Shown here: piece by piece, positions 1,671 through 46,794 of the stretch
How positions within the stretch are numbered: position 1 is the stretch's first letter
Layout of the letters: every line of letters starts with the position of its first letter
Source of the DNA: a virus
Length of the DNA: 64,000 bases
Virus record (IMG/VR): IMGVR_UViG_3300037840_000227
Coordinates: 1 to 64,000 of that record
Reading direction: 5' to 3' (one strand)
The notes under the pieces: generated by a model
What the model was told of the DNA's origin: nothing
The model's database searches: none
The model's input: only the letters and a program-made list of their open reading frames with translations
Program-made: the position numbers and the translations under genes

Positions 1671-3568
1671 GGCTGTTGTGGGCAGCATTATTCGCAGGGT
1701 TAATGCTGTGCGCTGCAGCGCAAGCCCAATTCCTTTTGCCCGTATCATCACAACAAACGGATTGTTCCACCGCCGAAGCGATGCTCGCTCGGCCCTCATT
1801 CACTGGGCTAACAAAGACGCAGCAGCAGGCCTATAAGAACCTCGTCTGCCCACTCGTAACCTCCGGCACTTGGGCGAAGCTCGATGCATTCTATGCTTTT
1901 GGCCTCGCGCCAACCGCAGCCTTCGCCGAGGCAAATCTCGTTAGCTCCAGCTACACCCTCACCGTCACCGGCACTGAGACGTTTGTCCCTAATGTCTGTG
2001 TCTACGGCGATAATTCAACTGGCTGGCTGAACACCTCATTCACACCGAGCACCGCTGGTGGCCACATGACGGCCAATAGCGGCAATTATAGTGTTTATGT
2101 TCTTAACAATCGCACAGCGGGGGAAAGCGGCTGGGCGGCAATAGGGACTGCAATTGGCTCTGGTTCTGCAACCAGCGTGATCTATCCGTATTATTCAGTC
2201 GGCTCTGGCAGCTTTGGCCGCATCGGCAATATCACAAACGTCGCTTATGCGGGGATCACTTCTGGCCGGGGGCTGCTCAGCATCAGCAGAACGTCAAGTT
2301 CGCAGGTTGATTATTACATCAATGCTGTTGATGTCGCGACTAATGCTTCAGACACGGCGGGCTCGCTTGAGAGTGATACCGTCGTCATTGGAGCTAATCG
2401 CACTGGCGGCGCGGTCTCCAACTTTAGTGGCGACTGTATTGCGGCGGCTTTCTTCGGAGGAGGACTGACTCAAGCAGACGAAACGGCGCTCCAGAGCGCA
2501 ATAAGCGGCGTTCAGCCGCTTACTGTTTCTAATCAAACCCCTGGCGGCGTCCAGTTCTGGGGCTTCACGACAAACAAATTCTACGACAACACTTTTGCAT
2601 CTGTCGATCTGAACCAGACAAATAATCCAGGGTACAACTGGTATCTCACGCCTTGGCGCGGCACATCCGCCTTCCCGTCGACTTGGGTGACGGTGACAGG
2701 CGGCGTCATGACAATCAATCAGCTTGCGCTTGCCACGAATGAGTACGCCGTCGTTTGGAGCGCTGCCGATACAGCCCTTGCCTACTTCACCGGAACAATT
2801 TCCGGCTCTGTCCTGACTGTTTCAGCAGTCTCCTCTGGCACGATCGCCAACGGGATGATCGTCGTCGGCGGAAGCGTCACTCAAGGCACAACCATCACCT
2901 CGCTCGGAACAGGCACGGGTGGAACTGGCACCTACAATCTCTCAGCGTCTTCTACAGTGTCGAGCGGCGAGGCGATGGTGGGCGGTACCGTCATAGGGAC
3001 TCTTTTCCCTCCCGGCGGCTACTACGAGGCATGCTACAACGGCAATCCAACTTCGGCTCCCGCCTCTGGTTCTGGCTCGGATAACCTCGCTTGGTGGATG
3101 GAGGATGTCAGCGTTTTGCTAGGGAAAAATTTCGTCGCTTCAAGTCTGGGCATCGCCTCCACCGGCATCGAAGTCGATCACGAAGAGTCAATCATTGGAA
3201 CAGTCGGCGCTCCGACATATACCTTCAACGAGCATGATTGGACTAACACCAACGGCGGCGGCGGCGGCACTGACAACTACGTGCAAAAAAACGGATCATC
3301 TGCTGCCAACATCCATTGTTGGGGGACACTTTGGATACTGTCGACGCAGAATGGAGGCACCGGCAAGTTCGCCTATTTCCTCGATGGCGTGCCACAAGGC
3401 GCTCTAGGCGTTGTGACCTACACCGCTACAACTGGCTCAACGCCTGCGTCGACGCCAAGCAACCCGAATGGCCAGTTTTTCGCCGGCGAAAGCGATAGCT
3501 TTGTCCTTAGCCTTCAGGGTGGCCTCAACTGGCCGATGAACGTCTCCAGCGTGGGAGTATGGCACTGA
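1667..3568 (+). CDS. Signal-peptide protein with LamG/ConA-like and GH16-like domains
   Basis: [20 protein letters not shown]|Q signal; GGYYEA...WW...IEVDHEE (ExDxxE) motif; fibre-like [20 protein letters not shown]...[10 protein letters not shown] segment. Confidence 0.75.
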
Positions 3569-4848
3569 TGATTGGGATCACACATACCTTGCGCTGCGTT
3601 GCGACTACGCTCATCGCGCTTTCCCTCGCGGCCATCTTCGCCAACCCGGCGCTGGCCGACTTCCCGGGCCCTGTCTATCCATTCCTTCCAAATGGGAATT
3701 ACGGAGCGATTAACTTAATAGGAAGCGTCTCGAGCAATATTCCGATTCCCGGCGGAGCCAACAGCACGATCTTCATCGTCACCAATCTTGGCGCAACGAT
3801 CGCGTATACGACGCTTGGAACCTCGAACGCCGTCACGGCTAACACAACCGTTGATCCAATCCAGCCTGGCGCCAACCGCTGCTTCAGTCGCGGCGCCTAC
3901 ACCTATATCGCGGGATACTCTACCAATAGCGAGACGCTGACGATCGTTGGGGGAACTGGCCAGTGCCAGGATACTTCTGGCGCTCCCGCCACCGGGAGCG
4001 CCACGGCGGCAAATCAGACGAATGGAAGTCAGTTGACAATGATTGTCGACGGGCTTGGTAATGTCATCGGGTCCACCGCGAATGCTCTAAATGTGGACTG
4101 CATCGCCGGATGTAGTGGGGGCGGCGGAGGCGGAGGTGGCGCTGTCACAGCAGCGCTCGGTTCCTACGCTGCGGGCTTCAGCCCGGACATCGGCAACTCC
4201 GCGACGCCGACGGCGGCCTGGATAGGTAGCGGAACACCGACGGTTCTCGGCACCAATCAGGGCATCTACAATCAGCTCGTTGCGCTGAACACTGCCTTCA
4301 ACGCCTCGCTGACGCCGAACGCCGCGCTGACCTCATGGCAGACCTCACCGAATGCCGGCTTCGGTATTCTTTGCCAATATCTCAGCGCCAACCCATCCGC
4401 GCCAGCGAACACCAACACGATCGGCCTTCGTTGCGATCCGAACGGGCTCCTTAAGATTGCGCCGACAGCCTCGACTAATGGCGGCGCGCTGAATAGCGCT
4501 AGCTTCATTATCACCAACAATACGACGGCGGTTGTTGTCCGGAATGCGCCGGCGACACTCTATTCGATCAGCGCCTACACATCGACTGCTGCGACTGAGG
4601 GTGTCTGGCTCAAGCTTTATGACACGGCGACAACCTTCACATGCGGGACGGGGACGCCGGTCAGGCGCGATGCAGTTCCGGCAGCCTCGACGCCGGCGAA
4701 CCTCTCGGGCGCCACGATCGATCTCGGCCCAGCCGGCCGATACTTCACCACCGGCATTACGGCCTGCGTAACAGTCAATGTTGCGGACTCAGACGCTACT
4801 GCCCCGCCGGCGGCAAACTACGGCGCCGCCAACTTTGTGATCCAATAA
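3568..4848 (+). CDS. Signal-peptide virion-appendage-like protein
   Basis: TGATG overlap; hydrophobic leader ending NPALA|D; ATAANQTNGSQ motif; C-terminal jelly-roll-like WLKLYD.AT...GT.TP segment. Confidence 0.72.
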   Translation: MIGITHTLRCVATTLIALSLAAIFANPALADFPGPVYPFLPNGNYGAINLIGSVSSNIPIPGGANSTIFIVTNLGATIAYTTLGTSNAVTANTTVDPIQPGANRCFSRGAYTYIAGYSTNSETLTIVGGTGQCQDTSGAPATGSATAANQTNGSQLTMIVDGLGNVIGSTANALNVDCIAGCSGGGGGGGGAVTAALGSYAAGFSPDIGNSATPTAAWIGSGTPTVLGTNQGIYNQLVALNTAFNASLTPNAALTSWQTSPNAGFGILCQYLSANPSAPANTNTIGLRCDPNGLLKIAPTASTNGGALNSASFIITNNTTAVVVRNAPATLYSISAYTSTAATEGVWLKLYDTATTFTCGTGTPVRRDAVPAASTPANLSGATIDLGPAGRYFTTGITACVTVNVADSDATAPPAANYGAANFVIQ

Positions 4849-7967: not shown

Positions 7968-9856
7968 TACCTACGCTCGCGCGGCTTCTTCTCGCCTTCT
8001 GCGTCGCCGTCGCGTCGCCCGCGTTTGCCGATTCCATCACCACGACGGGCGTTGGGTCGATCGAAGCCGCCGCGCAGGTATGCGGTTCCCAAAAGACGGT
8101 TTTCATCACCTCGGGAACGACATGGACCGTTCCGAGCGATTGGTGCAGCACCAACACAGTTGTCGCGATTGGCGGCGGCGGCGGCGGCGGAGCGCCAATC
8201 AATGGGGCTGATACCGGCGGCGGCGGCGGTGCGGGAGCCTTTGCATTCGCAACGAATGTCGCGTTAACGCCTAGTTCGGTGATCCCGGTTCAGATCGGAA
8301 CCGGCGGCGCTGCTGGCGCTCCAGTTGGAGGAAGCGGCGGCAACGGAACCGACACGATATTCAATACCTCAACTATCATCGCTAAGGGCGGTCAGGGCGG
8401 AACGGGCAACCCGCTCACGCCAAATGGCGTAGGCGGCCTGGCCTCCGCCTCAGCGCCGACGACTGGCGCTCAGAACGGCGGCAATGGCGGCGTCAGCGGC
8501 ACTGGCAATGATGGCGGTGGCGGGGGCGGCGGCGCGGGCGGTCCGAATGGCGCAGGCGCCAATGGCGGCGCCACGAGCTCGAGCGGTAATAACGGCGGCT
8601 CTGGCGGCGGCGCTAGCGATGGCGGTTCGGTTGGCGGCAATGCAGCGTCGGGAAGTATTGGGGCCAACGGCGGCGCTGCCTTCGATGCAACGCTGGGGGG
8701 CGTTGGCGGCGGAGCGGGCCTCAACGGCGCGGCGGGTTCGCATGGCTCGGGCGGTGGTGGCGGCGGGGCATCGAATGGCAACGGCGGCAATGGCGGGGCA
8801 GGAATCGATTACATTCAGACTGCCGGCGGCGCTGTAGCGGGGCCGGGCGGCGGCGCGGGCGCGGGCGCGGGCGGACCGGGCAATGGCGGAACCGGCGGCC
8901 TCTATGGTGGCGGCGGCGGTGGCGGAGGCTGGTTCGAAGGCGCGGGCGGCGCTGGGGCCAATGGAATCATCATTGTCACTTACGGGACGCCAAATGCCTG
9001 TGGGGCGCCCATGTCGGCGCCGTCTCAAGCGGCTGGCCTGACAAAGCAGATCGACGATCAGTTCTGCCCGTCGACGACGCTCAACGCCACCAATTGGCTG
9101 CCGTATATGAACAACGCAGCCACCTTTGGACGGTGGACAAACGCCGGCAACCTGCCCAGCCCCTATTCAGCGGTCCAGAATACGGCCAGCCCCGGCTGCG
9201 CTTCGGCTGGATCGCAGCTCAACTGCGAATACGGCGATCCTTATCCTGCCGGCTATGGGACAAACAACGGCGATGGTTCTCACATGGTTATCCCCGGCAC
9301 ATCAACCGGGCTGCGCCTGATCGCCAACAATTCAAGCTCTCAGTACAACTCAGGCGCGAACCTCTATCCCTTCGCTAGCGCCTATATTACATCCGTCTGG
9401 CAATGCCCGTCGTCGGGCACATGCGTCATCCAGGTCAAGCAGAAGTTCTCGGACGTCAGTGGCGGCTTCTGGCCAACCCTCTGGTCCGACAATATGAGTG
9501 CGGAGGTTGATTTCAACGAGGGCGGCTTCCTCAACGGCGGCAGTTCGGCAAACGCCAACTTCGTCTTCGCCACTCACGTTTTTCCCAACGCTCAGTGCCT
9601 CGTCAACACCTCAACGAATATGTCGCTGGGGTATAATGTCTATCTCATCGTGATCATCCCCGGCACGTCAGTCACCACCTACCTCAACGGCGTGCAGATG
9701 TGTACCCAGACCTCCAGCGTGCCGACGGGGAACTTTACGCTGAGCGCCACGGCGACAGTGATGGGCATCAATGGGGCCGGCTACCATACCGATTGGGTCA
9801 GCGGAACTGTAACCATGGAGCAAGACATTGCGGAAGTGCAGGTCTGGCATAATTAG
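7964..9856 (+). CDS. Signal-peptide glycine-rich fibre-like protein with C-terminal GH16-like domain
   Basis: MIPTLARLLLAFCVAVASPAFA|D signal; TSGTTWTVP...IGGGGGG...GANGIIIVTY glycine-rich phage domain; GFWPTLW...EVDFNE GH16 motif. Confidence 0.8.
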   Translation: MIPTLARLLLAFCVAVASPAFADSITTTGVGSIEAAAQVCGSQKTVFITSGTTWTVPSDWCSTNTVVAIGGGGGGGAPINGADTGGGGGAGAFAFATNVALTPSSVIPVQIGTGGAAGAPVGGSGGNGTDTIFNTSTIIAKGGQGGTGNPLTPNGVGGLASASAPTTGAQNGGNGGVSGTGNDGGGGGGGAGGPNGAGANGGATSSSGNNGGSGGGASDGGSVGGNAASGSIGANGGAAFDATLGGVGGGAGLNGAAGSHGSGGGGGGASNGNGGNGGAGIDYIQTAGGAVAGPGGGAGAGAGGPGNGGTGGLYGGGGGGGGWFEGAGGAGANGIIIVTYGTPNACGAPMSAPSQAAGLTKQIDDQFCPSTTLNATNWLPYMNNAATFGRWTNAGNLPSPYSAVQNTASPGCASAGSQLNCEYGDPYPAGYGTNNGDGSHMVIPGTSTGLRLIANNSSSQYNSGANLYPFASAYITSVWQCPSSGTCVIQVKQKFSDVSGGFWPTLWSDNMSAEVDFNEGGFLNGGSSANANFVFATHVFPNAQCLVNTSTNMSLGYNVYLIVIIPGTSVTTYLNGVQMCTQTSSVPTGNFTLSATATVMGINGAGYHTDWVSGTVTMEQDIAEVQVWHN

Positions 9857-10094
9857 CGCGGCGCTCTTGCTGGCTCTCCCGGCGCTAGCCCAGCAGCGCC
9901 CGGACATCCAGCGCTATGCCGTGCTCGACAAGGTCGGCCAAGTCGTCTGGTTCATTGACAGCAACTTCCTGCCGCCATCACCGAAGGCCGGGTGGACCGT
10001 TCGCCTGGCGACGGCTGCCGATCTCGCCATCCCGCCGATCGCGCCCCCGTTCCATTCGCGCCTCGAACAGCAGCAATGGATGGCGGCGCATTGA
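9828..10094 (+). CDS. Small secreted hypothetical protein
   Basis: Hydrophobic leader ending LPALA|Q; start codon uncertain. Confidence 0.55.
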   Translation: MRKCRSGIISAALLLALPALAQQRPDIQRYAVLDKVGQVVWFIDSNFLPPSPKAGWTVRLATAADLAIPPIAPPFHSRLEQQQWMAAH

Positions 10095-10135
10095 TGTGTT
10101 AAACCGGAATTGGGCTATGAGGGTGAGACAGGGCC

Positions 10136-10465
10136 ATGACCGAATATAATGGAGCGATCCCCGCTGGCGGCGCGATGGCGGTGTCTCCGCCAGGCGGCAA
10201 CGGCAGCCGCCGCCGGCTCAAGTATCAGAACAATGGGGTTTCCCTCATGCGGTTCTCGGCGACAACCGGCGTGCCGGCGAGCCTGACAGTTGGCCTCGCT
10301 GTGCCGGGGGGAAGCAACCAGGTCTACGAATGGCCGAGCCACATCGCCGCCGCCATCATTGGCGCAAGGGGCGCCTTGACGAGCCCGGACAATGGCGTGC
10401 CGACGGGACAGATTACGGTCTGGGGCCAGAATCCAGGCGATACCTGGTATGTCGAGGAGGAGTAA
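10136..10465 (+). CDS. Hypothetical beta-rich structural-type protein
   Basis: 109-aa ORF; its TAA stop lies inside the IS target-site duplication. Confidence 0.65.
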   Translation: MTEYNGAIPAGGAMAVSPPGGNGSRRRLKYQNNGVSLMRFSATTGVPASLTVGLAVPGGSNQVYEWPSHIAAAIIGARGALTSPDNGVPTGQITVWGQNPGDTWYVEEE

Positions 10466-10580
10466 TCCGGGTAGTGTCTCAGTTTCCGGAAGCGAACTTT
10501 ATGCTTAACAGCTGTCTCGAATTTAGGAGACAGCCTCCGAGTCGATATGCATACTAATTTGCCAGGGGAAAAATCACGGA

Positions 10581-10904
10581 TTGATCGTGGCAAACGATCC
10601 CGGTCCACAAGGGCATAAAGACGGGGATGCGAAGCCCGTCCGACGCGTTGGCCCCTTTCCCCCGCCGAGGACGCTCCCTGCTTTCCCGAACGCGATAAAA
10701 GTCAAAGGCAAAACCCCGAGGCATAAGGGATCGAGCGGGATGCGCCCCCGTTGGAAGGAGCCTGACGGAACTATCTACGAATGGGATAGTCAACATGGAA
10801 CAGTCGAAAAATATGACGCAGACGGTAACCACTTAGGAGAGTTTGATCAGTTTAATGGGAAACAAACGGGACCTGCAATTTCTACGAGGAGTGTAGAACC
10901 ATGA
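10581..10904 (+). CDS. Colicin E3/CdiA-type cytotoxic ribonuclease domain (stand-alone)
   Basis: KTP...RPRWKEPDGTIYEWDSQHGTVEKYD..GNHLGEFD...G.Q..PA...RSVEP matches the colicin E3 RNase (Cytotoxic) domain pattern; start may be GTG 10587. Confidence 0.85.
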   Translation: MIVANDPGPQGHKDGDAKPVRRVGPFPPPRTLPAFPNAIKVKGKTPRHKGSSGMRPRWKEPDGTIYEWDSQHGTVEKYDADGNHLGEFDQFNGKQTGPAISTRSVEP

Positions 10905-11146
10905 GCTACACACTTGCGCATCAATTAGTCGGGTATGATCCTGAAACTGAGCGTCTTGAGGTCCAATGGGAAATCCCCGAGAGTCTTATGGATAAGGTTC
11001 GAAGGCTGGTCGTAACAGACGAAGACGATCCCGATATTGTCGACGCTTATCCTGTCGACCCCACCGTGGCTCGCGATATCCTAGGAATGCTTCACAGCAA
11101 CGAACGTCGGCAACTCGACTATTTCCTGGAAGGCTTTCAGCGCTAA
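10901..11146 (+). CDS. Putative cognate immunity protein
   Basis: Small acidic 81-aa protein, ATGA-coupled to the toxin gene, ending DYFLE. Confidence 0.7.
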   Translation: MSYTLAHQLVGYDPETERLEVQWEIPESLMDKVRRLVVTDEDDPDIVDAYPVDPTVARDILGMLHSNERRQLDYFLEGFQR

Positions 11147-11149
11147 CTG

Positions 11150-11491
11150 CTATCGAATGCGCTTCGCTTTTTTAGCCTCGCGATAGCGTTCGTCGCGCGC
11201 ATCGAGAAGCGCGACAATATCATCCATGCCCCAAAGCCGATCAGAGACGCCAGCGGCCATCGCGGGCGTGACCCTCAGGCTCTTATGGATGCGGATGAAG
11301 TTGTAATAGAGGAAGTACAGCGCCAGAGAATGACAATGGTTCTCAATCTTCTTTGAGAATGCGTTCGTCAATCGGGTGAAGCGCCGCATGCCCATGCGCA
11401 TATTCAAGTTCTGACGCTCAACATGGCTTGTCGAGATATGCGCTTCATCGGGGTTGCCTTCGATTGGCGTCCTGATCGCGCCCGTGCCCAC
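11150..11491 (-). pseudogene. IS1-family transposase, C-terminal fragment only
   Basis: [34 protein letters not shown]...[18 protein letters not shown]; in-frame stop just upstream, N-terminal part missing. Confidence 0.85.
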
Positions 11492-11580
11492 CGGCGCTCA
11501 GGGCCATAACAGGAAGGCCCGTATCTGACCTTTGCCGTGGGGGCGGGACAGATACGGGCCTTGGTGGGCACGCCTTCTTA

Positions 11581-11693
11581 GGAGGCGTGGCCGAGCGGTT
11601 TAAGGCAGCGGTCTTTAAAACCGCCGGAGCTTGCCCTTCCGAAAGGAAGGGATAGACGGGCTTCCGTAGGTTCGAATCCTACCGCCTCCGCCA
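11581..11693 (+). tRNA. Ser-type tRNA with TTA anticodon (ochre suppressor-like) and 41-nt variable arm
   Basis: Acceptor GGAGGCG/CGCCTCC, G73, CCA; anticodon stem GCGGT/ACCGC, loop CTTTAAA; T arm GTAGG-TTCGAAT-CCTAC. Confidence 0.85.
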
Positions 11694-11699
11694 GTTTCC

Positions 11700-11740
11700 C
11701 GGCGCATCTTTTATTATAAAGGGTGCGCCGTTCTTTTTCT
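11700..11740 (+). terminator. Rho-independent terminator after the suppressor-like tRNA
   Basis: CGGCGCATCTTT...AAAGGGTGCGCCG hairpin followed by TTCTTTTTCT. Confidence 0.6.
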
Positions 11741-11972
11741 ATTTCTTATTCCAACGGCTTGCGGCGGCTTGCTTCGCTATCTCCATCCTTCTTTCCGGCG
11801 TCATCTTCGCGGCCCTCGCGGCGCCGCCTTTCTTGCCGAGCGCCTTAGCGCCGGGGTCTTTCCCGTCATCCGGCGACGTGTCGTCAACCTCTCCCGTCGC
11901 GATCTTGGCGATTAGGACGGCGCGGGCGTTTATGTCAGCGGGGCGGCGCTCGCCTTTAGGACCTCGGGGCAT
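11739..11972 (-). CDS. Small basic IS-associated protein
   Basis: MPRGPKGERRPAD...IATGE...LG.KGG.ARA.KMTPERR.EIA..AA..RW, typical of alphaproteobacterial IS passenger ORFs. Confidence 0.8.
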   Translation of the reverse strand: MPRGPKGERRPADINARAVLIAKIATGEVDDTSPDDGKDPGAKALGKKGGAARAAKMTPERRMEIAKQAAASRWNKK

Positions 11973-12259
11973 TAGATTTTCCGCTTTCCCGGTTTTCTGA
12001 CTGAACTCGGCTCAAGAGAGCCGTTCCGCATGGCCTCCTCGAATGCGCGTCTAAATTTCTCAGAATCTCTGCGGACCGGCAGTGGCTTGCCGTCCGGGCC
12101 TAGCTTGACGATTTCCGTTTGATCGCGACGACCGCAGAGATTTGGCCCGCGCGGACCGCGGCGCCACTCATCACCGATTCGATCGCCGATGGTTTCCGAC
12201 CTAGCGTCCGGCCATCGAAGTTTCCCTGACACATCCGCCTCATGCTTTCCGCCAAGCAT
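11972..12259 (-). CDS. Hypothetical IS passenger protein
   Basis: 95-aa ORF, TAATG-coupled to the downstream small protein. Confidence 0.45.
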   Translation of the reverse strand: MLGGKHEADVSGKLRWPDARSETIGDRIGDEWRRGPRGPNLCGRRDQTEIVKLGPDGKPLPVRRDSEKFRRAFEEAMRNGSLEPSSVRKPGKRKI

Positions 12260-12408
12260 ATAGGCGACGAGCGCCGGAGGCGAGAGCTAGTCAAGCTGGA
12301 TTATTTTTCAAACTGAGACACTACCGTAATCCGCTACCCCTAGCGCGTTTCTGAAATTCGTGATTAAAGAGGGGCGGACTCAGCCTTGCCCGTGGGATGG
12401 GGGAGATT

Positions 12409-12918
12409 ATGTCGCCAGTTGGAACGATTCTCGTCGAAGTTCACCGTCCGCTGCTCGGCATTGACGACAACGGCAATCTCGTCCTCAACACCGACGGCAA
12501 TATGAATGTCGCCAACGCGAACCCGGGCCTTGTCGGCAAGGGCATCGGGAACGCCGTGACGATCACCAACGGTGTCGGCGCTTCCGCCAATATCTGCAAC
12601 GTCACCTTCCAAGCCACCGATTCGCTCGGCAATCCGTTGTCGAAGGTGGCCTCTATGGAGGTTCTTCTCTCCGACGCCGCAACCGGCGCGGGACTTACCG
12701 CTACGACGGCCTCGGGCGGCATTGCCGCGGCGGCGGGCGGTGGAGTGGTTCTGGGCGTTCTGACTGCCGCCAAGGCGCTTCTCGTCCAGACGAACGCCTC
12801 GGGCCAGTTCATTCTCGCCATTACCGATACGGCGAAGACTCTCTTCTATCCAGTCGCCCAGTATGCCGGGGCCACGGTAGTCGGCGCGCAGCTTACGGCG
12901 GCGAGCTATCACGCCTGA
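12409..12918 (+). CDS. Hypothetical phage structural-type protein
   Basis: GGGAG SD; Ala/Gly/Thr-rich beta protein directly upstream of terminase. Confidence 0.7.
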   Translation: MSPVGTILVEVHRPLLGIDDNGNLVLNTDGNMNVANANPGLVGKGIGNAVTITNGVGASANICNVTFQATDSLGNPLSKVASMEVLLSDAATGAGLTATTASGGIAAAAGGGVVLGVLTAAKALLVQTNASGQFILAITDTAKTLFYPVAQYAGATVVGAQLTAASYHA

Positions 12919-12944
12919 TATGACTCGAGCCCGCGTCGAGATGA

Positions 12945-15674
12945 ATGGCCGACGAGCAGCAGACGCTTGCTGATAGTGTGCCCCAGTGGGGCAGCATGTC
13001 CCTTGATGAGATAGCCAAGCATCTCGCTGGGCTCCCCAAACAAAATCGTGATGACATTGTCGAGGCGGCTTACCACGCCACGGCGGAACGTAAATGGATT
13101 CCTAACACCGGCGCTCAACTCGACGCATACTTCAATAAAGCCGATGTATTACTTTATGGCGGCGCGGCAGGTGGCGGTAAACTGCTTGATATCAATGAGT
13201 TACTGCCAACACCGCATGGTTGGGTGCGGATGGGCGATGTTGCGATCGGCGACATTCTCTTTGATCAGGCCGGGTCCCGGTGCAGCGTTACGGCAGTTTC
13301 TCCTGTCAAATCAGCGAAGACATATCGCCTAACCTTTGACGATGGAACGGAAGTAACCTGCTGCGCCGATCATCTCTGGCTTACCTACGACGCTAAAGAG
13401 CTTGGCCAGCTTCTCAAGAAAACCGATGAGTGGCGGAGTCGGCGGCGCGCGGCTCGGCCATCAAGAGCCAAGGGCATCAAAAGCGAAAAATTTCGACTGT
13501 CAATCTCGGCGAGAAACTCCACGTTAGCGAAATCGACGCCAGCTCCAACTGGCTCGATCAGGACTACTCAGCAGATCGTCGATACCCTCATCGTCAAGAG
13601 AGGCCGTCGCAATCACGCCGTTCCGGTTGCTGGTGCGATAGAGCTGCCGGCTGCCGACCTTTCTTTAGATCCATATATCTTAGGCGCATGGCTCGGCGAC
13701 GGGACGGCCATAAGTGGTGGGTTTACTGGCGTGGATGACTTCATTTGGCGGGAGATAGAACGCGCGGGATTTGTCGTTACTCACGCAGCCGGAAAAGCTA
13801 GCGCTCATCACATCAGGGGACTCGTCCCATTCCTTCGTCGTCTTGGCGTCTTGGGCAATAAGCATGTTCCCCCGGCTTATCTCCGAGGTTCTATGGCGCA
13901 GCGCTTGGCCCTTCTACAGGGCCTCATGGATACGGATGGCCACGCCGCACTTGATGGTGGGTGTGAGTTCGACAACACAAATCTTAGTCTCGCTGAGGCC
14001 GTTTATGAGTTGGTGGCTAGCCTCGGCATCAAGGCAACAATCAATGAAGGTGTGGCGACGCTTTATGGCCGTGCTCTTGGGCCGAGATGGCGCGTTAAGT
14101 TCACGACCGATGTCCCGGTTTTCCGGCTTCCGCGTAAACGTGCGAGGCAAAAAGCAAAGGTGCGTCAAGTCGCAAGATTTCGTTACATCCGCGAGGCGAT
14201 CGAGGTGGACCCGGTTCCCATGCGGTGCATCTCTGTAGACAGTCCGACTAGGCTATATTTATGTACGAAATCATTTATCCCGACTCATAACAGCCAGTTA
14301 ATACTTGGGCTTGCTTTCTGCGAACACAAGCGGTCGCTTATCATGCGACAGGAATTCTCTGCATTAACAACGCTCACACAGCAGGCGATCAAGATAAACG
14401 GGACGAAGCAAGGGTATAATGGGTCAAACCCTCCTAGTATAAAGACGTCTGATGGAAGATTTATTCAGTTTAGTGGAGAACAGATTGAAAAGTTCCAAGG
14501 TGCAGATTTCGATTTAAAGGGGTTCGATGAGGCCGTACATCTCTCCGAGGAAACCATTCGTCTTAACCTCGGGTGGCTCCGTACTGCGGAGATCGGGCAG
14601 CGCACGCGAGCCGTTTTGGCCACAAATCCGCCGACGGACTCCAGGGGCGACTGGATAATTCCTATGTTCGGCCCGTGGCTTGACATCAACCATCCAAATC
14701 CGGCCCAGCCAGGCGAATTGCGATGGGTTGCCGTCGACCCGGACGGCCGGGATTTTTGGACCGAGGGGCCAGAACCATACCTATTTCCTGGCGAACGAAT
14801 TCCGGTCATCCCGAAATCAAGAACGTTCATCCCAGCCAAGCTCTCTGAGAATCCTTATTACGTACAGAGCGGCTATCAGAAAGAACTCGACGCTCTTCCA
14901 GAGCCGTATCGCTCTGCCTACCGCGACGGCAACTTCATGGCCGCGAGGAGCGATCAGGATAATCAAGTCATCCCCACTCAGTGGGTGCTCGAGGCACAAA
15001 AGCGCTGGAAGAAATCCGGGGGCGCCGAATTGATGATGAGCGCTATGGGCATTGACGTCGGGCAGGGCGGGATCGATCGCATAGTAATCGCTCGCCGGCA
15101 TGGGGAATGGTATGCGCCACTGATTGTTGTCTCCGGCAAGGATGCGCCGGACGGTTCTAAACAGGCGGCGCTGATTGTCGAAAATCGTCGCGATGGCTGT
15201 AGTGTGATTGTTGATGTCGGCGGCGGCTATGGCGGTGACTGTGTCGGGCGCCTCCAAGATAACAAGATCACGCCGGTTCGCTTCAACGGCTCTAGCGGCT
15301 CAACCAGTCGGGCCAAGGATGGCTCCGGCCGCCTCTTCGAGAATCGGCGCGCTGAGGCATGGTGGCGCTTCCGCGAGGCGCTTAATCCTGATCAGGCCGG
15401 CGGCTCAATCATTGCCCTCCCAGATGATTCAGAACTGCGGTCCGAATTGACCGCACCAACCTTCAAAAGCGAAATGCTGAAGATCCAAATCGAGGATAAG
15501 AAGGACATTAAAAAGAGGTTAGGCCATTCCCCGGACAAAGCCGACGCCGTGGTGATGGCCTGGGCGCCGGGCGAGACTGCGATTCGCCGCCAGCGCTATT
15601 CTGGCTTTGGCGGTCCAGTTGAAATGCCGTCGCGAACAAACTTGGGATATTCCGATATGAAGAAGAGGATTTGA
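12945..15674 (+). CDS. terL: Terminase large subunit with intein
   Basis: Walker A YGGAAGGGK|S split by intein; Walker B GFDEA; ATNPP; RNase H-like GIDVGQGG.D and SPDKADA motifs. Confidence 0.93.
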   Translation: MADEQQTLADSVPQWGSMSLDEIAKHLAGLPKQNRDDIVEAAYHATAERKWIPNTGAQLDAYFNKADVLLYGGAAGGGKLLDINELLPTPHGWVRMGDVAIGDILFDQAGSRCSVTAVSPVKSAKTYRLTFDDGTEVTCCADHLWLTYDAKELGQLLKKTDEWRSRRRAARPSRAKGIKSEKFRLSISARNSTLAKSTPAPTGSIRTTQQIVDTLIVKRGRRNHAVPVAGAIELPAADLSLDPYILGAWLGDGTAISGGFTGVDDFIWREIERAGFVVTHAAGKASAHHIRGLVPFLRRLGVLGNKHVPPAYLRGSMAQRLALLQGLMDTDGHAALDGGCEFDNTNLSLAEAVYELVASLGIKATINEGVATLYGRALGPRWRVKFTTDVPVFRLPRKRARQKAKVRQVARFRYIREAIEVDPVPMRCISVDSPTRLYLCTKSFIPTHNSQLILGLAFCEHKRSLIMRQEFSALTTLTQQAIKINGTKQGYNGSNPPSIKTSDGRFIQFSGEQIEKFQGADFDLKGFDEAVHLSEETIRLNLGWLRTAEIGQRTRAVLATNPPTDSRGDWIIPMFGPWLDINHPNPAQPGELRWVAVDPDGRDFWTEGPEPYLFPGERIPVIPKSRTFIPAKLSENPYYVQSGYQKELDALPEPYRSAYRDGNFMAARSDQDNQVIPTQWVLEAQKRWKKSGGAELMMSAMGIDVGQGGIDRIVIARRHGEWYAPLIVVSGKDAPDGSKQAALIVENRRDGCSVIVDVGGGYGGDCVGRLQDNKITPVRFNGSSGSTSRAKDGSGRLFENRRAEAWWRFREALNPDQAGGSIIALPDDSELRSELTAPTFKSEMLKIQIEDKKDIKKRLGHSPDKADAVVMAWAPGETAIRRQRYSGFGGPVEMPSRTNLGYSDMKKRI
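13182..14291 (+). mobile_element. Class 3-type intein with LAGLIDADG homing endonuclease, in TerL Walker A
   Basis: Starts LLDINELLPTPHGW, ends SFIPTHN|S; blocks LGAWLGDG and LLQGLMDTDG; W (DHLW), C (MRCI), T (PTHN) triplet. Confidence 0.88.
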
Positions 15675-21138: not shown

Positions 21139-21212
21139 GGCGCTGTAGCCCAATTGGTAGAGGCATCTCGCTCAGACCGAGAAGGATCCGAGTTCGAATC
21201 TCGGCAGCGCTA
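21139..21212 (+). tRNA. tRNA-Leu(CAG), short variable loop
   Basis: GGCGCTG/CAGCGCT, loop CTCAGAC, no encoded CCA. Confidence 0.85.
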
Positions 21213-21213
21213 C

Positions 21214-21290
21214 GCGGGTGTAGGCAAATCGGCAAAGCCGCCTGCCTCAAAATCAGGTGTTTCGAGATTCGAGTTCTCGCATCCGCACCA
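21214..21290 (+). tRNA. tRNA-Leu(CAA), short variable loop
   Basis: GCGGGTG/CATCCGC, loop CTCAAAA, ACCA. Confidence 0.8.
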
Positions 21291-21295
21291 AATTC

Positions 21296-21369
21296 GGCCG
21301 CCTAGGCCAACGGTAGAGTCGGGAGATTTAAATCCTCCTTCAGTGCGCGTTCGAATCGCGCGGCGGCTA
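21296..21369 (+). tRNA. tRNA-Leu(TAA), short variable loop
   Basis: GGCCGCC/GGCGGCT, loop TTTAAAT; anticodon register slightly ambiguous. Confidence 0.7.
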
Positions 21370-21370
21370 C

Positions 21371-21445
21371 GGGCGGTTAGCTCAGAGGAAGAGCGGGGGT
21401 CCTACAAACCTCAGGTCGGGATTTCGAAATTCTCACCGCCTACCA
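21371..21445 (+). tRNA. tRNA-Val(TAC)
   Basis: GGGCGGT/ACCGCCT, loop CCTACAA (C33), ACCA. Confidence 0.85.
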
Positions 21446-21450
21446 TTCAC

Positions 21451-21524
21451 GGTCACGTAGCTCAGTGGCAGAGCCGGCGCTCGATAAGCGTCTGACGCGA
21501 GTTCGATTCTCGACGTGACTTCCA
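21451..21524 (+). tRNA. tRNA-Ile(GAT)
   Basis: GGTCACG/CGTGACT, loop TCGATAA (C33), CCA. Confidence 0.8.
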
Positions 21525-21571
21525 ATAAGGGAAGGTTCCAGCCATGTGCGAATATCTCAAACGGGTTCTCT

Positions 21572-21666
21572 GGACCCGTGACCGGAGTAGGCCGATCGGC
21601 CCTGACTTTTAATCAGGTGTGGACTTCGGTCCACCATCGCGAGTTCGAATCTCGCCGGGTTCTCCA
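21572..21666 (+). tRNA. tRNA-Lys(TTT) with long variable arm
   Basis: GGACCCG/CGGGTTC, loop CTTTTAA, V-arm GTGGAC-TTCG-GTCCAC. Confidence 0.8.
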
Positions 21667-21669
21667 CTT

Positions 21670-21755
21670 GGACCGGTAGTCAAGCGGCCAACGACAAGAG
21701 ACTCTTAATCTCTCGACGAAAGTCTTCGGGAGTTCGAATCTCCCCCGGTTCGCCA
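21670..21755 (+). tRNA. tRNA-Lys(CTT) with variable arm
   Basis: GGACCGG/CCGGTTC, G73, loop CTCTTAA, V-arm GAC-GAAA-GTC. Confidence 0.85.
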
Positions 21756-21759
21756 ACAC

Positions 21760-21835
21760 GGCGTCGTACCCCAAAGGCAGAGGGAGAGCGTTGAGAACGC
21801 TTTCAGTGGACGTTCAAGTCGTCCCGACGCCACCA
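21760..21835 (+). tRNA. tRNA-Leu(GAG), short variable loop
   Basis: GGCGTCG/CGACGCC, loop TTGAGAA, ACCA. Confidence 0.85.
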
Positions 21836-44437: not shown

Positions 44438-45058
44438 GTGTCGACCTCACTGGACATCATCGACGGAATTCCAGATCAAATCGCGTATAAAGCGCCATGC
44501 GCTTGCGCTACTACAGGAGATTTAACTAATTCTATGATTGGGCTGATAACCGTGGATGGTTATCAGCTACTTCCGAACGACAGAGTATTGGTTTGGCAGA
44601 ATAGTGATGAACGTACCAATGGAGTCTACAACGCCTCTACTGGAGCATGGGTACGGGCGGTCGATTTCACCTCAACATCTGCTATAGGAGCGGGCACGCA
44701 GGTCTACGTCTACAACGGCGTTACTTACGCCGGCTCTGTCTTTGTTTGCCAAGCCCAAATGCCAGTCGTCGGCACATCGCCGATCACCTTCAATCGCCTT
44801 TCCATGTCGACCGCGCCAAATGTGGCGCAGCTCCCGATTACGCCCGGCCAGGCCAAGCGGGCGCTGGCGACGCTCGGCTACAATGTCGAGACACTCGAGA
44901 TGGCCATCCCGGCAGATAGCCAAAACTCGATCAACATCGCCATGAATGACGCCTTCTGGCCGATCGGCGGCGCGGCGTGGGCTTTCGTGCAGTCAACCTA
45001 CGGCATTACTGGCGCGCAGGTGACGGCGATCCAAAACACGGCGACGACAAATCGATGA
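44438..45058 (+). CDS. Tail fibre proximal/anchor-like protein
   Basis: K.PC..ATT...L.G..TVDG.....DRVLV..Q.....NGVY....GAW.RA.D motif common at phage fibre N-termini. Confidence 0.75.
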   Translation: MSTSLDIIDGIPDQIAYKAPCACATTGDLTNSMIGLITVDGYQLLPNDRVLVWQNSDERTNGVYNASTGAWVRAVDFTSTSAIGAGTQVYVYNGVTYAGSVFVCQAQMPVVGTSPITFNRLSMSTAPNVAQLPITPGQAKRALATLGYNVETLEMAIPADSQNSINIAMNDAFWPIGGAAWAFVQSTYGITGAQVTAIQNTATTNR

Positions 45059-46794
45059 AGCGGATCCTCCTCGCCCTTCTCCTGTCTGTCGCCGCCGTGC
45101 CGGCGAGCGCGCAGGATGTCATCAATCGGCTCTTTTCGGTGACGCCCGGCCTTGGCGTCAGCACGGGCATTGATGTCGGCGGCCAGCAGCATGTCGTCAC
45201 CACGCTTCCCTCCGGCCTCACCTATCCATCCCCCCTCGTCACCGGGCAGGGGCTTGATATCGATCCGACGGCGGGGACGCTCAATCAGGGCATCAACATC
45301 CTGCAGGCTCCGGCAGGAACGGCATCCGGGCCGGTTGACCTCAATGTCATCAACATCTCGCCTGATACAACCGTGGCGGGAGCGAACTTTGTCGACGGGC
45401 TGGCGATCATCCTCGGCTTTGGCGGCTCGAGCGTCACCGGCGGCCGGCAGGCGTTGCAGGTCATCACCAGCCTCAATGCGGCGACTGCGCTTGGCAACCC
45501 CAATCAGAACTATGTTGGCCTCGTGGCGGAGGCGCAGTCTCAGGTCAATGACAATGGCACCAACAGCGTCGCGCAAGGGCGTCTCTACGGGTTCAACCCC
45601 ATCTGTCGCATGGCTGCGGCGGCGACGTTCTTCTATATCTGCAATTCGATGGAGGCCGACGTCCAGGTTGAGGCTGGCGCTTCCGTTCTTAATAAATACG
45701 GCTTTACCGTCGCCCAAACCGCTCTTGATGCGGTGCATGGCTCGACAAGCGAGGCGGCGATCTTCATTGGCGATCAGATCGGGGCGGCGGCGCCCTGGAA
45801 CGTCGGGTTCCTCATCGGCGATGGCGTCAATCAGAACCCCATCTCGGCGACAGGCACACTGCTTCTCTTCAAGGGCGCCCCGACGATCGCCAATGTCTTT
45901 GATCTTTCCAATGCGACGATCTCGACTTGCGCGCTGAAACTCGCGGCTGACTGCGCCGTCGGCGGCAATGGCAATCTCCTTGCGCCAACGATCACGGCGA
46001 CAACCCTCATCACCACGCCGGCCCTGACGATCAGCGGCATCACCGGCTCGACGCAGTGCCTCCAGGTGAGCACGCTCGGCGTAGTCTCCGGCACTGGGAC
46101 GGGATGCGGGGGCGGCGGCGGCGGTGGCGGCAACGTCTCTAACTCGGGCACGCCATCGGCGGGTCAGATTGCTCTCTGGGTTACTTCGACGACGATCCAG
46201 GGCGTCGCCAACCTCCCGGTCGCCAATCTCAATGGCGGCACAGGCGCGTCGAACGCCACCTACTGGCGTGGGGATGGAACATGGGCGACGCCGCCAGGCG
46301 GCACGGGCCGCGTTCTCCTCAATACGTTGACAGCTTCGAGCTCGGCGTCCCTCCAGGATACAACAAGCATTACGGGCACATACGCCCATTATGAATTTGA
46401 TTTCCAGAATGTCATTCCGGCTTCGAGCATCAACCAGTTCGAGATGCTCGTTTGCACCTCGACTTGCGGCTCGTTCCAGACATCTGGCTATGCGGGCATT
46501 TTTGGCGATTATGGCAATGGAGGGGCTTCGAGCGGCACCTCGGGCTCGTCTCAGCCGCTCTCCAGCGCCGGCATTACAACCGCATCCAACCTTAGCGGCT
46601 TTGTCCGACTCGATTACCCAGCCACGGCCAACTCACCAATCAGCGGCCAGATCACCGGCGCGATCGTCAGCGGCAATTACTTCTCCACAGCCCCGCAGGG
46701 CTGGTGGAACGGCACAGGAATTACGGGAGTGCAGTTTAAGTTCTCGACAGGCAATATTGCGTCGGGCACAATCAAAATCTATGGATTCAACTAA
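45055..46794 (+). CDS. Tail fibre/spike-like protein with N-terminal signal peptide
   Basis: MKRILLALLLSVAAVPASA|Q; NL.VANLNGGTGAS..TYWRGDGTWATP; C-terminal LL.T.TASSSA...GNIASGTIKIYG. Confidence 0.78.
   Translation: MKRILLALLLSVAAVPASAQDVINRLFSVTPGLGVSTGIDVGGQQHVVTTLPSGLTYPSPLVTGQGLDIDPTAGTLNQGINILQAPAGTASGPVDLNVINISPDTTVAGANFVDGLAIILGFGGSSVTGGRQALQVITSLNAATALGNPNQNYVGLVAEAQSQVNDNGTNSVAQGRLYGFNPICRMAAAATFFYICNSMEADVQVEAGASVLNKYGFTVAQTALDAVHGSTSEAAIFIGDQIGAAAPWNVGFLIGDGVNQNPISATGTLLLFKGAPTIANVFDLSNATISTCALKLAADCAVGGNGNLLAPTITATTLITTPALTISGITGSTQCLQVSTLGVVSGTGTGCGGGGGGGGNVSNSGTPSAGQIALWVTSTTIQGVANLPVANLNGGTGASNATYWRGDGTWATPPGGTGRVLLNTLTASSSASLQDTTSITGTYAHYEFDFQNVIPASSINQFEMLVCTSTCGSFQTSGYAGIFGDYGNGGASSGTSGSSQPLSSAGITTASNLSGFVRLDYPATANSPISGQITGAIVSGNYFSTAPQGWWNGTGITGVQFKFSTGNIASGTIKIYGFN

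Follow-up and report, generated by a model that had tools for sequence, protein, structure and literature searches.

Do a ribosome-targeting toxin, its putative antidote and a stop-codon-reading tRNA that share one small mobile element form a single system, or are they separate passengers of the same vehicle? The question is raised by a 1.86-kb element at positions 10462-12333 of the window, by which we mean the whole 64,000-nucleotide stretch that opens the IMG/VR virus record IMGVR_UViG_3300037840_000227. This phage record is 98,782 bp long, has direct terminal repeats and is rated 100% complete. A first interpretation made from the letters alone, hereafter the sequence-only reading, had described a non-autonomous IS1-derived transposon whose cargo acts mainly on translation, and had offered an addiction module, an abortive-infection module or a readthrough-controlled switch as its function. 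Our analysis retains the transposon and dissolves the system: the locus is probably an IS1-family transporter element with independently acquired passengers, in which toxin and tRNA are not functionally coupled.

The ends of the element were located by scanning the window and the genome. The left terminal inverted repeat (TIR), the 16-bp sequence GGTAGTGTCTCAGTTT that begins GGTAGTG, lies at 10470-10485 on the plus strand, and its exact reverse complement forms the right TIR at 12310-12325 on the minus strand. With up to three mismatches allowed (0.14 expected) the window contains no further match, and the 98,782-bp genome has none besides these two either. Direct reading places the two copies of the 8-bp target-site duplication (TSD), GTAATCCG, at 10462-10469 and 12326-12333. 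The right TIR continues inwards as GAAAAAT, fitting the family consensus GGTAGTGTCTCAGTTTGAAAT, and over the subterminal ~90 bp its identity with other copies is 73-76%. The perfect repeats and intact duplication of the sequence-only reading are confirmed at these positions, and they support the clean insertion that it proposed; the enclosed toxin, coupled acidic open reading frame (ORF), 5'-deleted transposase, structured RNA, and UUA tRNA with terminator are likewise all present. The insertion point is just 3' of the stop codon of a phage 109-aa ORF (10136..10465), upstream of the terminase region, and because the left TSD copy itself holds the TAA stop of that ORF (10463-10465), no gene was disrupted. 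Between the left TIR and the toxin start, at 10511-10534, there is also a perfect 8-bp hairpin (GCTGTCTC ... GAGACAGC) that is not followed by a T run.

These ends belong to a large family. We label its loci L003-L120 (viral), L123-L124 (plasmids) and L125-L244 (bacterial genomes), and the locus counts given below are counts among the loci listed. Among IMG/VR viral contigs more than 118 contain the exact 16-mer, and at least 120 bacterial contigs contain the 19-mer GGTAGTGTCTCAGTTTGAA, which is GGTAGTGTCTCAGTTT extended by GAA. The bacterial contigs come from Acidobacteriota, Bacteroidota, Alpha-, Beta-, Gamma- and Deltaproteobacteria, Binatia, Planctomycetota, Verrucomicrobiota and Chloroflexota; alphaproteobacterial plasmids bear the insertion sequence (IS) family too. 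About 30 of the listed viral contigs contain inverted TIR pairs 277-4324 bp apart, most of them with exact 8-bp TSDs. When the partner TIR was allowed three mismatches, 58 other elements bounded by exact 8-bp TSDs were found, spanning 183-4224 bp. Derivatives of 183-460 bp that resemble miniature inverted-repeat transposable elements (MITEs) exist within the family.

Assignment of the family to IS1 rests on both the ends and the transposase. Ends of IS1-family elements begin GGnnnTG and their TSDs measure 8-9 bp; the TIR start GGTAGTG fits this pattern, and the TSD is 8 bp here and in the 58 other bounded elements. The transposases of full-length relatives, each a single ORF of 288-305 aa, match PF03400 at 26.4 and 37.2 bits (cut-off 24.1) and the NCBIfam IS1 model at E=3e-19, which is under its equivalog cut-off, and the plasmid homologues are annotated 'IS1 family transposase' by NCBI. 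The insA-insB' frameshift layout of classical IS1 is absent, as the relatives encode one ORF and the accompanying 77-aa frame, orf77, is a separate gene. Complete members read TIR, orf77, slot A, a DDE transposase of ~290 aa, slot B, TIR. The gene orf77 points inwards from one TIR, the transposase gene stops just a few bases short of the other, and both lie on one strand. Passengers occupy slot A, between orf77 and transposase, or slot B, between the transposase stop and the TIR, and are often on the opposite strand.

Set against this layout, the window copy has kept both ends and orf77 and has lost most of its transposase. What is left is a 3' remnant at 11150-11497 on the minus strand (ORF 11150..11491), identified by tblastn and PF03400, which corresponds to residues ~177-291 of the ~290-aa relatives. 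It lacks the N-terminal ~175 aa, comprising the helix-turn-helix and most of the DDE domain, and the breakpoint is at ~11497. The remnant is 56-76% identical to full-length relatives over ~90-105 aa (tblastn) and scores 22.4 bits on PF03400 (E=1.7e-4; cut-off 24.1); homologues of it were found by tblastn at 36 viral and 37 bacterial loci. No second transposase or IS copy is present in the phage genome, and together with the truncation this makes the element non-autonomous. The non-autonomous, IS1-derived cargo element of the sequence-only reading is thus upheld by the IS1-model matches, the truncation and the TIRs and TSD. It would be expected to move only where the host contains a full-length relative that provides transposase in trans.

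That reading had also listed two small ORFs. Both frames are present, though neither appears to be a passenger. The first, orf77 (11739-11972, minus strand), encodes a conserved basic protein of 77 aa and is a core gene of the IS: homologues adjoin a TIR at ~55 viral and 32 bacterial loci (tblastn), and more than 1000 database homologues of 70-84% identity are nearly all annotated 'hypothetical'. In the window copy the frame is unbroken, and identity to its nearest relatives reaches 83%. The protein is predicted to be helical (predicted local distance difference test, pLDDT, of 72 for the model), and the model found no Foldseek match in the PDB. The second, orf95 (11972-12259, minus strand), is an open frame that fills the stretch from the right TIR to orf77, with which it overlaps (TAATG). 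It has no Pfam, NCBIfam, PHROG or PADLOC match and no tblastn match in the 240 related loci, and other copies have a spacer of 100-360 bp where it lies; it is probably not a gene.

Slot B holds the toxin and its presumed antidote. The toxin ORF (10581-10904, plus strand, 107 aa) matches the PF09000 Cytotoxic domain at E=6.7e-28 over profile positions 2-80 of 80 and aligns with the colicin E3 chain 1E44_B (E=2.3e-10), including the YEWDSQHG motif. The catalytic residues D69, H72 and E76 are invariant in 44 relatives. This supports the colicin E3-like RNase of the sequence-only reading as a prediction at the level of sequence. The start codon is either TTG at 10581 or GTG at 10587, the choice being uncertain. 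Only 26 residues precede the domain, and the toxin comes without a translocation or receptor-binding (delivery) domain and without a lysis gene. For comparison, the domain is always C-terminal in 961 database relatives, which range from 80 to 2906 aa, and viral full-length E3-toxin relatives measure 540-730 aa.

The acidic 81-aa ORF that follows (10901-11146, plus strand) would encode the cognate immunity protein. Its start overlaps the toxin stop (ATGA), the Shine-Dalgarno-like GAGGAG stands 9 nt upstream, and its own stop is TAA. The protein matches PF24731 (DUF7683) at E=2.3e-9. It has no PF03513 (Cloacin_immun) match of its own; one DUF7683 relative does match PF03513 (E=0.002), and a four-sequence DUF7683 profile matches Im3 chains full-length at E~0.1, so that DUF7683 appears to be a remote relative of Im3. 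The same overlap joins a Cytotoxic ORF of 95 aa to a DUF7683 ORF in an alphaproteobacterial genome (L280). A model of the toxin-immunity complex scored 0.87, the best of three controls 0.01; its runs share at least 97% of contacts and the partner pLDDT is at least 92. The mark set for this score is reached by 58 of 80 solved complexes and by 2 of 110 mismatched pairs, counts that hold only roughly here because an alignment of our own was used, and since the E3-Im3 complex has already been solved the pass may reflect likeness to it. With that proviso the model supports binding of the toxin by the immunity protein, and a cognate pair is what the ATGA coupling, the DUF7683 match and the L280 pairing also suggest.

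As to where the pair came from, its guanine-cytosine (GC) content of 48-51%, below the 63% of the flanks, points to a foreign origin. Database searches returned little else: a word-index search with the immunity protein found only itself, the cassette has no blastn match among plasmids, and the single-sequence AlphaFold model of the immunity protein (pLDDT 53) is too poor for a structure search. The immunity protein is recorded on four contigs and orf77 on two. We considered that slot B had been filled by way of a relic TIR next to the transposase stop and rejected this, as a TIR scan of the window revealed no such relic.

The occupant of slot A is of another kind. A tRNA gene at 11581-11693 (plus strand) is recognized by Rfam RF00005 at 57.9 bits and by our own scanner, and is missed by ARAGORN. 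Its acceptor (7 bp), anticodon (5 bp) and T (5 bp) stems are perfect and its anticodon loop reads CUUUAAA, with U33, the anticodon UUA and a purine at 37; it would read UAA and probably also UAG. It matches annotated tRNA-Ser genes in phages, and its D and anticodon arms are identical to those of the tRNA-Ser(UGA) of two viral contigs (L121 and L122) except for a change of G35 to U. Serine identity in E. coli resides in a long variable arm, G73, and the pairs G1-C72, G2-C71 and A3-U70. The window tRNA carries G1-C72, G2-C71, A3-U70 and G73, followed by an encoded CCA. Seryl-tRNA synthetase (SerRS) does not read the anticodon, so that a G35-to-U derivative of tRNA-Ser(UGA) should insert serine at UAA. 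The anticodon and the tRNA-Ser scaffold together favour a serine-type ochre suppressor, in line with the nonsense suppressor of the sequence-only reading. The variable arm is extraordinary at ~41 nt, with a 6-bp stem, a 7-bp stem and a GAAA loop, far outside the usual tRNA-Ser range.

The tRNA appears to have arrived as a complete phage unit. It is preceded by a strong stem-loop at 11484-11571 on the plus strand (-60.2 kcal/mol, z=-4.8; core arms 11514-11530 and 11546-11562) and followed at 11700-11739, on the same strand, by an intrinsic terminator of 14 stem pairs and a T run. Another phage contig, L283, carries at 223-310 on its minus strand a UUA Ser-type tRNA that shares the anticodon and T arms and the 3' acceptor strand with the window tRNA and has a variable arm of normal length (~17 nt); no IS is nearby, and a TerS-like ORF lies ~2.8 kb away. 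Homology between the two loci spans hairpin and tRNA and includes one compensatory change, A:T to C:G, in the hairpin stem, which identifies the 'structured RNA' as the conserved leader of a phage tRNA gene. Its left edge, at ~11500, coincides with the transposase breakpoint at ~11497: where homology to the transposase ends, homology to L283 starts, as expected if leader, tRNA and terminator were captured whole and replaced the 5' part of the transposase gene. A transposase rearrangement scar, which we had considered as the source of the hairpin, was rejected on the same grounds. Membership of a known RNA family was rejected as well; the hairpin has no Rfam family, and its sole match, to mir-600, is spurious at 23.7 bits against a cut-off of 80. 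Exact patterns for the window tRNA matched nothing in viral or metagenome contigs.

If toxin, immunity protein and tRNA formed one device they might be expected together elsewhere, as the sequence-only reading had proposed to check. Neither toxin nor immunity protein is encoded in any of ~240 other IS loci (tblastn), and in 33 viral E3-toxin loci we found no TIR, transposase, DUF7683 or suppressor tRNA. The association is therefore confined to the window copy among these loci. Nor does the notion of one translation-targeting system agree with the composition of the element, in which the passengers sit in separate slots and differ in origin, the toxin cassette having its low GC and the tRNA unit its kin in L283.

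A readthrough-controlled switch fares no better, as no in-frame TAA links toxin, immunity gene and tRNA; the toxin ends with TGA and contains no in-frame TAA. At the level of the genome, the phage does not recode TAA. Its long ORFs end with TGA in 67 cases, TAA in 28 and TAG in 24, and long-ORF coverage, 0.852 with the standard code, rises to 0.874 when TAA no longer counts as a stop and to 0.880 when TAG does not, a gain no larger for TAA than for TAG. An in-frame continuation of at least 60 codons follows 8 of the 28 TAA, 16 of the 67 TGA and 3 of the 24 TAG genes. Four TAA-ended ORFs (3559-4848, 44977-46794, 72580-73272 and 85545-86618, in genome coordinates, the last two beyond the window) are followed by 139-909 open in-frame codons, the first of them by 909. 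If the suppressor works, fusion products would be expected from TAA-ended ORFs with such continuations. We also asked whether the IS needs the suppressor for its own genes and rejected this: no in-frame TAA is conserved across 55 full-length copies of the transposase, and TAG is the stop codon of orf77 as well as of the transposase remnant.

Other copies of the family carry other passengers. A census of 74 passenger ORFs from 56 bounded elements, using PADLOC and Pfam, returned PD-Lambda-2_B six times, P63C five times, RmrA (Rosmer) four times, and the SocA/Panacea antitoxin and an nSTAND1 NTPase three times each. HEC-04, HEC-09, PDC-S13, SoFic, a type I restriction-modification specificity subunit, MazF/PemK, Fic, NYN, Clp and an AbiEii-like ATPase were found once each. 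The cargo of the family is not random but dominated by defence and toxin-antidote genes. The sequence-only reading had held that random cargo without a toxin-tRNA association would speak against it; the association is indeed missing from other copies, whereas their cargo is not random. In an Acidiphilium plasmid (L124:4383-5221) a RES-domain toxin and an Xre-family antitoxin lie directly outside the right end of an IS copy; the pair was tried as cargo and rejected because it is outside the element's TSD.

tRNA genes are rarer passengers and were seen only in viral copies, with 6 inside elements in ~118 viral loci and none in 120 bacterial loci. The six are Gly-CCC, Thr-AGU, Tyr-GUA, Thr-CGU and two UUA suppressors; most have a hairpin upstream, a strong one in three. 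The Thr-AGU gene called by ARAGORN in L063 (2237-2311, minus strand), whose anticodon is unusual, lies just upstream of the transposase. The other suppressor stands in slot A of L029, at 10304-10386, flanked by the transposase on one side and on the other by an orf77 that is truncated; the 1323-bp copy (10046-11368, TSD AATCTCCC) is otherwise intact. This tRNA scores 59 bits with Rfam, is of class II, and its best match is annotated tRNA-Leu; the copy has no toxin. A further Leu-type UUA tRNA with a hairpin upstream is found outside any IS in the viral contig L284 (1623-1709, minus strand). Copies of the IS often lie within 150 bp of tRNA genes (L099:8263-8334, L107:6300-6376, L056:3737-4877, L091:7195-7269, L022:1038-1113 and L061:175-270), which suggests a possible route by which tRNA units are captured. 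The copy in L056 is MITE-like, 277 bp long and located within a phage tRNA array. Elsewhere, ARAGORN reports a tRNA with the unusual anticodon Phe-AAA outside an element in L174 (4701-4777).

Known phages have large terminases at most ~40% identical to the one encoded by this phage, and Caulobacter and Bordetella are the nearest hosts with a name. The terminase ORF (12945-15674, 909 aa) aligns with other terminases mainly over residues ~449-875, and the ~350 residues ahead of this part resemble, on reading the translation, an intein or homing-endonuclease insertion. GC content is 59%. An array of at least 28 tRNA genes detected by ARAGORN occupies 20.9-25.4 kb of the window; ARAGORN calls no Ser, Tyr or Trp tRNA in it. 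Its four Leu-anticodon tRNAs (21139-21835) are only 75-77 nt long and hence without a long variable arm, and the two with Lys anticodons (21572-21666 and 21670-21755) have variable regions of 21 and 14 nt. A tyrosine integrase was not detected in the phage.

We propose, then, that a non-autonomous transporter IS inserted just past the stop of a phage gene, and that it holds two unrelated passengers. In slot B, a low-GC cassette would encode a stand-alone colicin-E3-type 16S-rRNA RNase with a coupled, distantly Im3-like immunity protein. In bacterial hosts this pair would most likely serve as a selfish module of the stabilizing or abortive-infection type, and it would be mostly baggage in a phage that apparently does not integrate. 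In slot A, a complete phage tRNA unit would have replaced the 5' two-thirds of the transposase gene. Several observations weigh against this account or limit it. We found no empty site and no related phage, either by megablast of 9800-13000 against GenBank phages, by searching IMG/VR for the exact empty-site junction, or through the downstream 173-aa protein, which has no relatives giving an empty site in viral or metagenome contigs, so that the insertion is inferred only from TIR and TSD. The genes of the element are predictions from sequence, the toxin start codon is weak, and with a variable arm longer than that of known tRNA-Ser species, charging by SerRS is likewise a prediction. The lack of a tyrosine integrase makes an addiction role inside the phage doubtful. 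Our co-occurrence counts cover the TIR matches listed, and a rare co-occurrence may lie beyond them. Finally, a second, independent UUA suppressor, of Leu type, occupies slot A of L029, and suppressors make up 2 of the 6 tRNAs inside elements against 0 of ~34 outside in the same loci, a small sample which hints that selection, and not accident, may account for the tRNA cargo.

The last of these observations bears on an alternative to which we give a clearly smaller share of belief, namely that the element is an island of use to phages: the IS would trade useful genes among them, its passengers being selected separately and not as one machine. The suppressor would extend TAA-terminated phage or host proteins, or counter a tRNA- or translation-directed host defence, and toxin and immunity protein would exclude competitors or aid host takeover. 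A role in counter-defence is known for phage tRNAs (PMC10264068, PMC11555353). Restriction of internal tRNAs to viral copies speaks for such an island, as do a Ser-type and a Leu-type UUA suppressor, both of class II and independent of each other, in the same slot, and the occurrence of UUA suppressors with leader hairpins as ordinary phage genes in L283 and L284, with the compensatory change preserving the hairpin. Perfect tRNA stems, intact catalytic residues of the toxin and the eight TAA genes with continuations of at least 60 codons are in keeping with it too. Yet these continuations are no more frequent after TAA than after TGA, the genome is not recoded, and each suppressor is a singleton in IMG/VR. 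Furthermore, a change at position 35 alters decoding, so that the tRNA cannot replace a cleaved cognate tRNA, and an immunity protein in a shared cytoplasm would protect a co-infecting phage as well.

The remaining two explanations pull in opposite directions. That the locus is a decaying wreck, with no cargo functional or expressed and the insertion a dead end of some infection, we hold to be very unlikely. It would account for the truncated transposase with no source of the enzyme in the phage, for a toxin that has neither a clear start codon nor a delivery domain, for the abnormal variable arm, and for our failure to locate a sigma-70-like promoter for the cargo genes. It does not accord with perfect TIRs and TSD, with intact toxin and immunity frames, with catalytic residues that are invariant, with the good Shine-Dalgarno sequence ahead of the immunity gene, or with a tRNA whose stems are all perfect and which a terminator follows; orf77 has stayed intact and 83% identical to its nearest relatives, and the presence of the immunity protein on four contigs and of orf77 on two indicates that the element persists in its lineage. 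Least probable of all, in our judgement, is that toxin, immunity protein and suppressor tRNA are one module, whether an addiction or abortive-infection device or a readthrough-controlled switch. All three do lie within 1.86 kb and bear on translation, and the TAA stop of the immunity gene is followed by 69 open in-frame codons; that frame, however, runs antisense through the transposase remnant. The separate slots with their distinct composition and origin, the absence of co-occurrence in the IS and viral toxin loci, the TGA stop of a toxin without in-frame TAA, and the other suppressor-bearing copy, which lacks the toxin, all tell against a module.

Under the transporter reading, each component is of a known kind: transporter IS, IS1 elements with passengers, toxin-antitoxin genes in transposons, orphan E3 cassettes and suppressors derived from tRNA-Ser. 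Single-ORF members of the IS1 family and the passenger-bearing 'transporter IS' of ISfinder's ISMhu11 subgroup are presumably near kin. With the IS1 family the group shares a DDE transposase matching the Pfam and NCBIfam IS1 models, GGnnnTG ends, an 8-bp TSD and the carriage of passengers by some members. It differs in having a single-ORF transposase without the InsA/InsB' frameshift, a 77-aa partner gene beyond a cargo slot, a TIR that is identical across many phyla and a cargo that is mostly defence and toxin-antitoxin genes, and the window copy is peculiar in lacking two-thirds of its transposase. The toxin pair recalls colicin E3 and cloacin DF13 with Im3 in its D/H/E cytotoxic domain, its immunity gene directly downstream and a faint full-length similarity to Im3, but the window toxin has only 107 aa, no receptor-binding or translocation domain and no lysis gene, and its immunity protein matches DUF7683 and has no PF03513 match of its own. 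The small size of the toxin is reminiscent of the orphan toxin-immunity cassettes seen in polymorphic toxin loci.

The E. coli suppressor supD and psu1+ of phage T4, the latter phage-encoded, insert serine and arose by a single anticodon change on tRNA-Ser. The window tRNA is natural rather than laboratory-selected and ochre (UUA) rather than amber; its variable arm measures ~41 nt, its leader hairpin is conserved, and it is carried by an IS. Phages recoded at TAG or TGA also encode a stop-reading tRNA; in the window phage, by contrast, TAA is an ordinary stop, used in about a quarter of the long ORFs. Toxin-antitoxin pairs are known to ride inside Tn3-family transposons (PMC7157771), where toxin and antidote presumably stabilize the element or its replicon; here the transposon family is another, the toxin is a bacteriocin-type rRNase and not a classical type II toxin, and the replicon is a phage. 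Searches of the literature yielded no account of this IS group, of the 77-aa partner or defence-rich cargo that mark it, or of suppressor tRNAs carried by an IS.

The toxin-tRNA 'system' would thus amount to two unrelated passengers, which is an ordinary outcome, and the interest of the locus lies in its family of vehicles. Tentatively, and aware that it is rather unlikely to hold in full, we postulate that the GGTAGTGTCTCAGTTTGAA-ended IS1 group is a cross-phylum shuttle of conflict genes between chromosomes, plasmids and phages, which in phages has repeatedly captured tRNA units including two ochre suppressors, and that UAA readthrough is a selected and traded trait of GC-rich phages. Should the family's own pattern of a shared end sequence, orf77 and defence-rich cargo hold, it would offer a route by which defence and toxin-antidote genes pass between bacteria and their phages, the TIR together with orf77 would give a sequence handle for mining new defence and counter-defence genes, and the phage copies would be a natural source of unusual class-II ochre-suppressor tRNAs, of interest to genetic-code engineering.

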